Below, piece by piece: positions 5,001 to 8,000 of a stretch of 64,000 nucleotides of DNA. Made by a program: the position numbers. Position 1 is the first letter of the stretch. Each line of letters begins with the position of its first letter. Origin of the DNA: Escherichia coli (lineage in GTDB: Bacteria > Pseudomonadota > Gammaproteobacteria > Enterobacterales > Enterobacteriaceae); the NCBI RefSeq assembly GCF_044324785.1, contig NZ_CP172127.1; one strand, 5' to 3'.

Positions 5001-8000
5001 GAGGATCTCGGTGCAGGTACGCATGTTGAAGTCATTGCGATAGAAGGGATAACGCTGATCATCCGTGCGGTCATCGCCTGATGCGACGCTGACGCGTCTT
5101 ATCATGCCTACAAAAATATGCCCGAATCGTAGGCCGGATAAGTCGTTTACGCCGCATCCGGCGGTTATGCGCTGATGCCTGATGCGGCGCGGGCGCGTCT
5201 TATCATGCCTGGAAGTCTGCGCCCGAATCGTAGGCCGCCTCCGCTATATTAACTGGCATTGGCAAATTACTCGTCACTACCTTTATTCATGTTTTTTTGG
5301 TCTTCATCCGGATAATGTTTTTTTAGATATTCCAGGACGTTTTTATTGACCTTGTGTTGCGTATACACCCACCCTTTCCAGTAATCAGGCTGGTCCAGGT
5401 AAACTTCTGGCGGAATGGTGAAATCAGAAAGCGTTAACCATTCGGCTAACAGATCAGGGTTTCGTTTCTGGATTAACTGCAACAGCATAATCAGTGACAT
5501 AGCTGAGGCAGGAGCCGTACTATCGCCACTCAAATATTTCCACACTGTTGACCGGTTCGAACGAAAAAGGATCGGTAGCAATGCCCGGTCCAGATTCATT
5601 TCATTAAAAATCTTCTCAAATTCATTCATTTAAATTTTCCTGCCTGGCGTAAACCTCTTAAAAATTGAGATTTATCAAAGAAACGCATTTTAGCACACAT
5701 CAGGAACCGGTTCACGTTTAGTCCAGAAACAGAATTTATTTCGCTTATCAAAACAAGTCTTTACTCTTTTTTACATTGAAAGAGCACAAAATGATTTTCG
5801 ATTTTATTTATATAAGAAACATTTTTTGTTTCTTATTGGTGGTGTTTACGCTTACACCAGACAAAAATGCGCTTTACATCACACAAATGGCGGCGTAGAT
5901 TTCGATTAAATTGCAACGCAGATTAATTCTTATAACAACGTTTTACGTTGCTTATAGAAACAAATATGTGACTTACTTTGAAAGAGAAAAAATGCATGAA
6001 AACTGTAAAGCTGTCTTTACTGGCTGTCGTTGTTGCTACCGTGGTAAGTCCATCTGCGTTTGCGGGTGATACTGTTGAGGCGGCAACGACAGAATTAACG
6101 GCAATCCAGCCAGGAATGTCGCAATCGGAAATTGATCAGAAAATTGGTCGATTTTTAGAAAGGACAGGGAATAGTGCAGCCGCACAAAATTATCTGATTG
6201 CGCATGATTACCGGACAACGACACCTCAGGAAAATACAGCTGCCTCTCCCGTACAGCCCGCCAATACGCTGAACCCGATAACCAATCAAGCGCAGACCGA
6301 CCGCGACAACGGGCAGGATACCGCCATTCAGGACGCACAACATGCCGCCAACTGGGCTTCAATGAAAGCTGATGACGCGCAGCACGCCATTATGGTGGCG
6401 CAGACGGATATTGATGCCAATAAAGCCGCCATCGCCGACACCCGTAATGATGTCTCCGCAGTGCAGTCAGACGTCACCAACATAAAAGGCGATGTCGCAC
6501 ATGCCCAGTCAACGGCTGACCATGCCAACGCTAACGCCAACACCGCTCTGATTAACGGCGTCAAACTTTCCGGTGCTGTGACAGAAAACAAAAACAACAT
6601 CGAACAGAACCGCAGCGATATTGCTGACCAGCAGAAACTGTTGGCATCAAACGAGCAAAAACAGATCGTCCGCGACAACGGGCAGGATACCGCCATTCAG
6701 GACGCGCAACATGCCGCCAACTGGGCTTCACTGAAAGCTGATGACGCGCAGCACGCCATCACGGTGGCGCAGACGGATATTGATGCCAATAAAGCCGCCA
6801 TCGCCGACACCCGTAATGATGTCTCCGCAGTGCGGTCAGACGTCACCAACATAAAAGGCGATGTCGCACATGCCCAGTCAACGGCTGACCATGCCAACGC
6901 TAACGCCAACACCGCTCTGATGAACGGCGTCAAACTTTCCGGTGCTGTGACAGAAAACAAAAACAACATCGAACAGAACCGCAGCGATATTGCTGACCAA
7001 CAGCAACAACTCGACGAAACCCGGAAAATCGTTGCCGCCACCGGGGATGTACAGACTGCCGCCCGATATCAGAGCATGATTGACGCCAGACAGACAGCCA
7101 CTGCCAATGCGCAACAGGCACAAGCTGACACCCAGCAGCAACAAATGGACGATCAGCAGAAACAAATCGACGCGACGCAAAAAACGGTTTTCGCACTTGG
7201 CGATGCCCAGACCAACGCACATTATCAAGAGATGGTTAACGCCGGACTGAGAGCACAAAATGATGCGAATGCGCGTACTGCAGCAGAACAAAAACAAAAA
7301 ATAGATACTCTGGCGACTAACCAGGCAACGCAACAGCATATCGATAGTGTGCAGTACGGGGAACAAATTCAGCGTCTGGCGCAAGACTCAACACAAACGC
7401 ATGAACAAATTGACAGCCTGACACAAGACGTAACCCAAACGCATCAGCAGTTAAGCAACACGCAAAAACGAGTAGCGGATAATAGCCAGCAGATTACTAC
7501 GCTCAATAACCATTTCAGTTCGCTGAAAAACGAAGTTGAGGACAACCGTAAAGAAGCCAATGCGGGAACTGCATCAGCCATCGCTATCGCCTCACAACCA
7601 CAGGTGAAAGCCGGTGACTTTATGATGATGTCAGCGGGAGCGGGAACCTTCAACGGTGAATCTGCGGTGTCTGTCGGAACATCTTTTAATGCCGGAACGC
7701 ATACCGTGATTAAAGCCGGTGTCTCTGCGGATACGCAATCTGATTTCGGCGCGGGTGTCGGCGTGGGATATTCTTTCTAATATTCCAATCCTCAATATAA
7801 ATAAGAGCAAGGAAGCTTGCCGGGTTTCACCTCTTCATTAATTTGTACATTATTTAAGGTTAACAATGATGAATAGTTCCATTAAATCGTTTTCCCTGCT
7901 GGCGGTTATATTACTGGCTGGCTGTAGTTCACCCACTTCCCGCATCGCAGATTGCCAGGCGCAGGGCGTCAGCCATGACACCTGTTATCTCGCAGAACAA

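Follow-up and report, generated by a model that had tools for sequence, protein, structure and literature searches.

A 369-bp tandem module of variable copy number in the predicted coiled-coil stalk of a YadA-anchor protein of Escherichia coli

Introduction

In Saa of Shiga toxin-producing Escherichia coli, in YadA and in UspA1/A2, the stalk contains repetitive modules, and strains differ in how many they carry. Here, we examine a tandem repeat of 369 bp in a gene that occupies positions 5996..7780 of a 64,000-nucleotide stretch of the E. coli chromosome (RefSeq assembly GCF_044324785.1, contig NZ_CP172127.1), referred to below as the window; coordinates are those of the window, plus strand, unless another locus or strand is named. 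The repeat most probably constitutes a structural module, variable in copy number, in the coiled-coil stalk of a small trimeric autotransporter (TAA) of the YadA type that has no recognizable head and is encoded by z0639/gmrA of the O157:H7 island OI-29.

Variation of this kind has been linked to function and to recombination in other surface proteins. In Cha, a TAA of the Haemophilus cryptic genospecies, repeat number is reported to modulate adhesive activity (Sheets & St Geme 2011, as summarized in PMC9704523), and size variation of the streptococcal M protein has been attributed to homologous recombination (Hollingshead et al. 1987, as summarized in the same review). For the periscope proteins, the stalk repeats have been proposed to set the distance of the N-terminal functional region from the cell surface; the review of that class considers that TAAs may act similarly, yet excludes them by its class definition (PMC9704523).

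The O157:H7 gene itself has been described in quite different terms. Yang et al. 2018 (PMC5826968) report that deletion of z0639 lowers motility and flagellation, that His-tagged GmrA shifts a fragment of the fliA promoter in an electrophoretic mobility-shift assay (EMSA), with enrichment in chromatin immunoprecipitation followed by quantitative PCR (ChIP-qPCR), and that the protein has a 'putative DNA-binding domain'; the activator role is also reviewed in PMC10877973. Our literature search, in a coverage that mostly left out subscription journals, turned up neither an account of the repeat polymorphism nor a paper treating the gene as a TAA, so that an earlier description is possible.

Results

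An in-frame 369-bp repeat in the window gene

The gene is complete (594 codons and a stop) and was recognized as an allele of z0639/gmrA, encoding a small YadA-anchor protein, from its open reading frame (ORF), Pfam content, synteny, BLASTP matches and the positions of published primer arms. Tandem Repeats Finder (TRF) reports a single array at 6293-7007, with a period of 369, 1.9 copies, 97% matches, no indels and a score of 1360. Compared base by base at an offset of 369, the sequence is near-continuously identical from 6293 to ~6634, and matches fall to chance level on either side. The two cores, 6301-6634 and 6670-7003, differ at 7 of 334 bases, and this 98% identity, set against the ~25% expected, excludes a chance origin. 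Three of the seven differences are synonymous and four change an amino acid (M/L, M/T, Q/R, I/M); two additional differences between the units, T/I and D/V, lie in the two codons that precede the core. The uninterrupted identical tracts shared by the two copies measure 36, 24, 28, 71, 87 and 77 bp. Since 369 is divisible by three, the reading frame is not interrupted anywhere in the repeat.

One 369-bp unit consists of a core of 111 codons and a linker of 12. The core of unit 1 (RDNGQ...SDIADQQ) occupies 6302..6634 and that of unit 2 occupies 6671..7003, each delimited by the TRF array, the offset-369 plot, the list of differences, a constant heptad phase and a single predicted helix (amino acids 94-217 and 230-349, respectively). 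The 36-nt linker between them, KLLASNEQKQIV (6635..6670), has a high-identity match to neither flank and coincides with a predicted helix break at amino acids 218-229. Beyond unit 2, from 7004 onward, the protein continues as QQLDETRKIV..., with no close copy of KLLASNEQKQIV. The array and the offset comparison thus bear out the in-frame tandem duplication of 369 bp that a first-pass annotation had reported. Its account of two 123-residue units with four amino acid differences was exact as to the substitutions but counted two full copies where only 1.9 are present, and its placement of the repeat end at 7035 has to be corrected: similarity stops near 7003-7007, and the counterpart of the linker is missing after unit 2.

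On the minus strand, two ORFs of 122 and 114 codons (6328-6696 and 6697-7041) have starts 369 nt apart; they are taken as mirror images of the duplication and its mechanical by-products.

Copy number across E. coli genomes

Located between ybbJ and cueR, the locus was found in 1414 of the 5426 complete genomes of E. coli searched; the flanking segment 1-5200 of the window, which is 98.9-99.2% identical to E. coli chromosomes and so assigns the window to this species, is present in 5416 of the 5426. The unit core occurs at 610 places in 350 complete genomes, with one to five occurrences per genome (median 2). In an evenly spaced sample of 60 unit-bearing genomes, one unit was present in 25, two in 30, three in 4 and four in 1. 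An 87-nt probe spanning the junction between two units is matched over at least 80% of its length in 214 complete genomes of E. coli.

To obtain allele lengths, the gene was extracted from twelve genomes. Alleles with no unit encode 338 amino acids (O157:H7, IHE3034), the one-unit allele of UPEC132 encodes 471, two-unit alleles encode 594 or 580 (118UI, A16, N3), the three-unit allele of STN0717-11 encodes 703 (717 was also found), the four-unit allele of WP4-S18-ESBL-07 encodes 840 and the five-unit allele of 18KM2445 encodes 963. The spacing of the units in these ORFs is exactly 369 nt throughout, and every ORF is intact except that of strain GF60. A protein search returned a ladder of lengths at 962, 825, 717, 702, 593-600, 471 and 457 amino acids.

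To compare the alleles further, 120-odd proteins were each resolved into their two terminal parts (N and C) and the string of units enclosed by them. On the background N4/C11, the strings form the series u58-u59, u15-u58-u59 and u15-u58-u7-u59; on N7/C8, the series comprises u14, u15 or u22 alone, u14-u15 and u14-u15-u22. Further strings are u6-u7-u7 on N4/C4 and u70-u70-u7-u7-u7 on N4/C40. Alleles whose N- and C-terminal parts are identical differ solely by whole units, and such nested series on identical flanks support the gain and loss of whole units, apparently by unequal recombination or slippage. The first-pass proposal that the repeat can expand and contract is therefore strongly supported, the orthologues carrying 0, 1, 2, 3, 4 or 5 in-frame units.

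The alleles share an invariant signal peptide and an invariant anchor, and the indels of 42, 369, ~366 and ~114 nt that distinguish them preserve the frame in all length variants examined except GF60. Because all observed copy numbers keep the frame, what changes is the length of the protein and not its expression state. The locus is thus not a contingency locus of the kind built on simple sequence repeats, where units of 1-9 nt switch a gene on and off; here the unit is 369 nt.

These data also bear on whether the second copy could be a product of assembly, either a duplication or a mis-assembled repeat. Short-read assemblies do break at this locus, leaving fragments annotated as 'adhesin, partial' on contigs of 363-660 nt that resemble isolated units. 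The window copies, however, differ at seven positions, with a distinct linker of 36 nt between them, several E. coli isolates encode the identical 594-residue product (74 contigs, of up to 5.68 Mb), the junction recurs in the 214 complete genomes, and intact ORFs with three, four and five units stand in finished chromosomes. We regard the chance of an assembly artifact as negligible.

Three other kinds of length variation were observed in the same family of proteins. A 42-nt (14-residue) in-frame deletion recurs inside the unit, between two DAQHA motifs, converting QDAQHAANWASLKADDAQHAITV to QDAQHAITV; alleles that carry it encode 457, 580, 586 and 703 amino acids (proteins P0076, P0014, L006 and L011). 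A duplication of ~122 residues in another register (...QQEQADAQQ|SDIEANK...), which extends across the unit's end and the stalk segment that comes after it, occurs in P0009, P0046, P0001, P0002 and P0005 and can co-occur with the 123-residue units. Alleles named as E. marmotae or Escherichia sp. show a separate duplication of ~38 residues (497 versus 459 amino acids).

Architecture of the encoded protein

The protein begins with a Sec signal peptide, MKTVKLSLLAVVVATVVSPSAFA (5996..6064), which was read from the translation without a predictor: it has two lysines in a basic n-region, a hydrophobic core of 12 residues and an A-x-A site (A-F-A), with cleavage predicted after AFA, before GD. The N-terminal region that follows (6065..6301) comprises a small helical domain at about amino acids 28-69 in the AlphaFold2 monomer model (helices 28-35, 43-57 and 61-69, pLDDT 73-80) and then a Pro/Thr-rich linker ending in LNPITNQAQTD. 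Pfam matched no family within 6065-6301, and a known head domain was not found there. At the C-terminus, 7598..7777 encodes a YadA-like outer-membrane anchor with four predicted beta-strands and the ending ...GVGVGYSF: the Pfam family YadA_anchor (PF03895) matches amino acids 535-594 over its full model (positions 1-60 of 60, E = 4.3e-11), and a phmmer search against the Protein Data Bank (PDB) aligns this segment to anchors of known structure, those of AtaA (5.4e-7), Hia (3.9e-6 and 2.9e-5) and YadA (0.06). In anchors of this kind each chain contributes four strands to a barrel that has 12 in the trimer. These matches bear out the first-pass assignment of the gene to the TAA type.

Between these ends the protein is predominantly helical in prediction. 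A simple heptad-phase scan gave a constant phase across each unit (amino acids 103-219 and 234-342) and a continuous one over amino acids 448-525, and the shift in phase at the junction is that expected from 123 mod 7 = 4. The AlphaFold2 model is helical from amino acid 94 to 532 with four short breaks; it has one uninterrupted helix on each unit (94-217 and 230-349), and the break between the two is confined to the junction (218-229). The confidence of this monomer model is low (pLDDT 58, pTM 0.21), as expected for a single chain of an obligate trimer, and its secondary structure alone was used. The non-duplicated remainder of the stalk (7004..7597) is shared with the zero-unit O157 allele, as established by BLASTP against O157 Z0639, the predicted helices 354-400 and 404-532 and the heptad phase map; it contains two T-V-x-A-x-G-D-x-Q-T-x-A-x-Y-Q motifs, located at predicted helix breaks. 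Heptad phase and predicted helices together support the first-pass claim that the repeat lies inside a coiled-coil stalk. We take the product to be a small, head-less protein of the TAA type with a YadA anchor, for which family knowledge predicts trimerization and exposure on the surface.

Age and history of the duplication

The first-pass annotation had judged the duplication recent, and a corresponding alternative is that it arose very recently in this strain, the four amino acid differences having accumulated afterwards. Two observations are in its favor. At 98% identity, the window copies are among the more similar pairs of neighbors within a genome, adjacent units differing at between 1 of 334 positions (18KM2445, L010) and 21-22 (A16, DSM 103246); and the neighbors with one difference in 18KM2445, which appear to be fresh local expansions, indicate that new duplications occur at the locus. 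The relationships of the window units themselves nevertheless point the other way. Unit 1 is only 2/334 away from unit 3 of WP4-S18-ESBL-07 and unit 4 of 18KM2445, compared with 8 from its own neighbor, and unit 2 is 5 bases away from units in two other strains. The synonymous divergence of the two window units is ~4% (3 changes at ~74 sites), so that in evolutionary terms they do not count as near-identical, the linker is poorly conserved relative to its likely source (see below), and the junction is common to the 214 genomes. With closer relatives of the units in other strains, this level of synonymous divergence and an allele inherited without change in many isolates, the claim of recency does not stand, and a strain-specific recent event is very improbable. 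Instead, the two-unit state is best read as an old and common polymorphism that has been shuffled by recombination, inherited here as a lineage-stable allele and not new in this strain.

Evidence for that shuffling comes from 21 distinct units, in which all four allele combinations occur at 132 of 435 informative site pairs, a pattern that implies exchange of unit variants by recombination or gene conversion. Clustering of units by strain, as under pure concerted evolution, and by position, as under pure orthology, were both considered and both fail, the distance matrix being a mosaic. The ratio of nonsynonymous to synonymous polymorphism (pN/pS) among the same 21 units is 0.23, from which it follows that the unit sequence is translated and constrained by purifying selection.

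The origin of the linker is less certain. Positions 6638-6670 (LLASNEQKQIV) match the upstream flank 6269-6301 (LNPITNQAQTD) at 18 of 33 bases, whereas the best of 332 in-frame control windows from the gene reaches 17; the match to the downstream flank is 14/30 and needs a 6-nt gap. The upstream match suggests that the founding duplication probably spanned ~6269-6637 and that the linker is probably, if uncertainly, a strongly diverged copy of 6269-6301. The start of the second copy would then be ~45% diverged while the cores are 94-100% alike, which may reflect selection for internal residues compatible with a helix (proline being replaced) or homogenization of the cores alone. A simple one-step recent duplication was rejected, as the linker has no high-identity match to either flank.

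Identity with gmrA and the published activator function

The deletion primer arms published for gmrA (39 and 38 nt) map to 1758-1796 and 2814-2851 of the O157 locus (L003), where they directly abut a 338-codon coding sequence (CDS) annotated as 'YadA family autotransporter adhesin' (1797-2813). Because they flank the orthologous CDS, the identity of the gene with z0639/gmrA is certain. By BLASTP (E = 2e-129), the window protein and O157 Z0639 are 75% identical over the C-terminal 255 residues and 50% over the N-terminal ~90.

This orthology, proved by the primer arms, brings with it the alternative that the protein is a cytoplasmic transcriptional activator, GmrA, in which the repeat would lengthen the coiled coil of a DNA-binding protein. 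The loss of motility upon z0639 deletion and the EMSA and ChIP-qPCR results favor it, as does the finding that deletion of the whole island left adherence unaltered (all in PMC5826968). The proteins themselves suggest otherwise. YadA_anchor is the sole significant Pfam domain in the window protein and in O157 Z0639 alike (E = 2.6e-11 in the latter), both alleles have a textbook Sec signal peptide and the outer-membrane beta-signal ...GYSF, and the anchor aligns to solved TAA anchors. No DNA-binding family is significant in either allele, the best match being the coiled-coil family TMF_DNA_bd in O157 Z0639 (E = 0.16), and an NCBIfam scan of the adhesin gave only SMC/Rad50/DndD coiled-coil matches, all sub-threshold and uninformative (the SMC/Rad50 matches reach 31 bits against cut-offs of 567-1087). 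All DNA-related matches are coiled-coil noise below threshold, and we conjecture that the 'putative DNA-binding domain' of the published account derives from matches of this sort. In the recombinant protein, a His tag placed N-terminally on the precursor would hide the signal peptide and so retain the product in the cytoplasm. Orthology with GmrA therefore comes with neither a recognizable DNA-binding domain nor features of a cytoplasmic protein, and it is difficult to see how a protein that carries a signal peptide and an anchor for the outer membrane would bind DNA directly. We consider a cytoplasmic activator improbable; the motility phenotype of the deletion may well be real, and the signal peptide and YadA anchor call for the activator assignment to be re-examined.

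We attach a small but appreciable chance to a more speculative proposal: the protein published as GmrA could be a trimeric coiled-coil fiber anchored at the cell surface, its length tuned by recombination in ~18-nm steps (0-5 modules), perhaps so as to reach beyond capsules or O-antigen layers that vary in thickness, with the reported effect on flagellar gene expression arising indirectly through envelope signaling and possibly depending on module number.

Neighboring genes

Downstream of the adhesin gene, and adjoining it in all alleles examined, is a gene for a 140-residue lipoprotein (7866..8288), recognized as the z0638 homolog of OI-29 from its ORF, the lipobox LLAGC, the annotation 'lipoprotein' in O157 and the z0638 primer arm. 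It may be a helper of the adhesin. As a SadB-like TAA helper it was discarded, as it shows no similarity to SadB or to any solved structure, and NCBIfam gave only matches below cut-off (TraV and the XAC1346-family secretion chaperone). Upstream, and divergently oriented, is a hypothetical gene of 120 amino acids (5267..5629, minus strand), the z0640 homolog of OI-29, identified from its ORF and from the z0640 primer arm at 5630-5667; no NCBIfam match was found for it.

Beside cueR, the minus strand carries an HlyD-type adaptor (8896-10071), a 720-residue ORF upstream of it (10068-12230) and an ORF of 6895 codons (12234-32921) that has diverged 318-nt tandem repeats of its own (15761-16497, 69% matches). 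The annotation of the adaptor points to a type I secretion system whose substrate would be a giant repetitive protein. The block 8896-32921 is absent from UPEC132 and IHE3034; in these, a short pseudogene remnant and ybaT come after cueR. In A16 and DSM 103246 (4911-6134 of L008 and L009), an extra hypothetical gene of 407 amino acids, which neither the window nor the other loci have, separates a 67/68-residue ORF from cueR.

Annotation of the gene in RefSeq

In the RefSeq annotation (PGAP), the multi-unit alleles, like that of UPEC132 with its single unit, appear as a 'YadA-like family protein' of ~340-350 amino acids that starts at an internal Met. The truncated calls are at 3431-4480 in L005, 3062-4111 in L006, L007, L008 and L009, 4764-5783 in L010 and 2163-3212 in L001 (UPEC132). 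In multi-unit alleles the annotated Met falls within the last repeat unit. All of these calls leave the signal peptide and the part ahead of the annotated start unannotated, while the full ORFs behind these calls are intact and encode 471-963 amino acids. Together with the breaks of short-read assemblies at the repeat, this truncation means that surveys of pan-genomes or virulence genes will miscount or mis-size the gene.

Discussion

A mechanism for stalk-length variation

The results fit a simple scheme in which the number of units would change when the cores pair in unequal homologous recombination or slip during replication, and gene conversion would mix their variants. In E. coli, identical tracts of 24-87 bp, the range found between the window copies, are long enough for unequal exchange, which depends on RecA, and also for slippage, which does not. 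Loss of a unit from the window allele would leave a chimeric one-unit allele of 471 residues and gain of one would give 717 residues; alleles of both lengths are common in nature. Each unit would form one trimeric coiled-coil stretch of ~120 residues and add ~18 nm to the stalk, a value calculated from ~0.148 nm per residue for a canonical coiled coil and not measured. On the same basis, the stalk would be ~27 nm long with no unit, ~65 nm in the window allele and ~120 nm with five units, so that unit number would set the distance of the small N-terminal domain from the outer membrane and the tip would display a helical domain of ~45 residues. That the projection of the adhesin changes with unit number, as the first-pass annotation had suggested, is a reasonable inference from the one uninterrupted helix predicted per unit.

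Several observations weigh against this scheme or against its functional significance. The evidence for copy-number change comes from comparison between strains. Strain M12 and its capsule mutants, which are closely related laboratory derivatives, all retain two units, and the exact window allele is stable on the 74 contigs that carry it; accordingly, the rate of copy-number change may be low. The two-unit allele of GF60 (L002) has an in-frame stop in unit 1 (KADDA*HAIT, at ~2181-2183) and is a pseudogene, which implies that the gene is dispensable in some strains. The families for head, neck and connector domains (YadA_head, YadA_stalk, HIM and others) had no Pfam match in the window protein even at E ≤ 10, so that of the features of the TAA class it has the signal peptide, the coiled-coil stalk and the anchor and is without those domains; this does not exclude membership, since it is the anchor and not the head that defines TAAs. 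Finally, the O157 ortholog has been published as a transcriptional activator of fliA, a role that fits poorly with a surface fiber, and deletion of OI-29 left the adherence of O157:H7 to HeLa or Caco-2 cells unchanged (both according to PMC5826968).

Some of the same points could be taken to mean that copy number merely drifts neutrally, without functional consequence, in a gene that is decaying or unexpressed. The locus is missing from ~74% of complete E. coli genomes, one allele (GF60) has a premature stop, Pfam finds no ligand-binding head, and the island showed no adherence phenotype in O157 (PMC5826968). Against this stand the preservation of frame in every other length variant examined, the pN/pS of 0.23 among units and the invariance of signal peptide and anchor across alleles. 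Neutral drift in a decaying gene is on balance unlikely, and a copy-number-variable module in a stalk remains the preferred reading.

Comparison with known systems

Variable stalk repeats are a known route to the alteration of bacterial surface fibers, and the principle is not new. What the locus offers is a clean natural series, 0-5 modules of 123 residues in the same register and arranged in nested alleles, that is suited to testing how stalk length relates to TAA function in E. coli. The nearest relative, GmrA/Z0639 of O157:H7 OI-29, shares with the window gene the locus, the ybbJ-cueR setting and the flanking z0640 and z0638 homologs; its 338-residue allele has no 123-residue module, whereas the window allele has two. 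Cha of the Haemophilus cryptic genospecies is likewise a TAA with identical in-frame tandem peptide repeats, variable in number, in its passenger. Its repeats are reportedly short (~28 residues), with variation seen within one strain, whereas the unit of the window gene is 123 residues and its variation is seen between strains. BadA of Bartonella similarly places a modular, repetitive coiled-coil stalk before a YadA-type anchor (PMC9602544). In contrast to the window protein, BadA, Saa, YadA and UspA1/A2 have recognized head, neck and connector domains and known ligands; Pfam detects none of these domains in the window protein, and its repeat is a pure heptad coiled coil.

Among the other long surface proteins, the periscope proteins (Whelan et al.) also carry stalk repeats of high DNA identity in strain-variable number (PMC9704523). 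The variable, high-identity repeats of the window gene agree with that class, but the class consists of single-chain rods of independently folding domains, which the window protein does not have; its rod would be a trimeric coiled coil. The streptococcal M protein is likewise a coiled-coil fiber on the cell surface whose length is altered by recombination between intragenic tandem repeats, differing in that it is Gram-positive, dimeric, sortase-anchored and unrelated in sequence, and in that its variation has been shown experimentally. Seen beside these systems, the window gene is a length polymorphism of an ordinary, well-documented type for surface fibers, its interest raised by the 0-to-5 series and by the conflict with the function published for GmrA.

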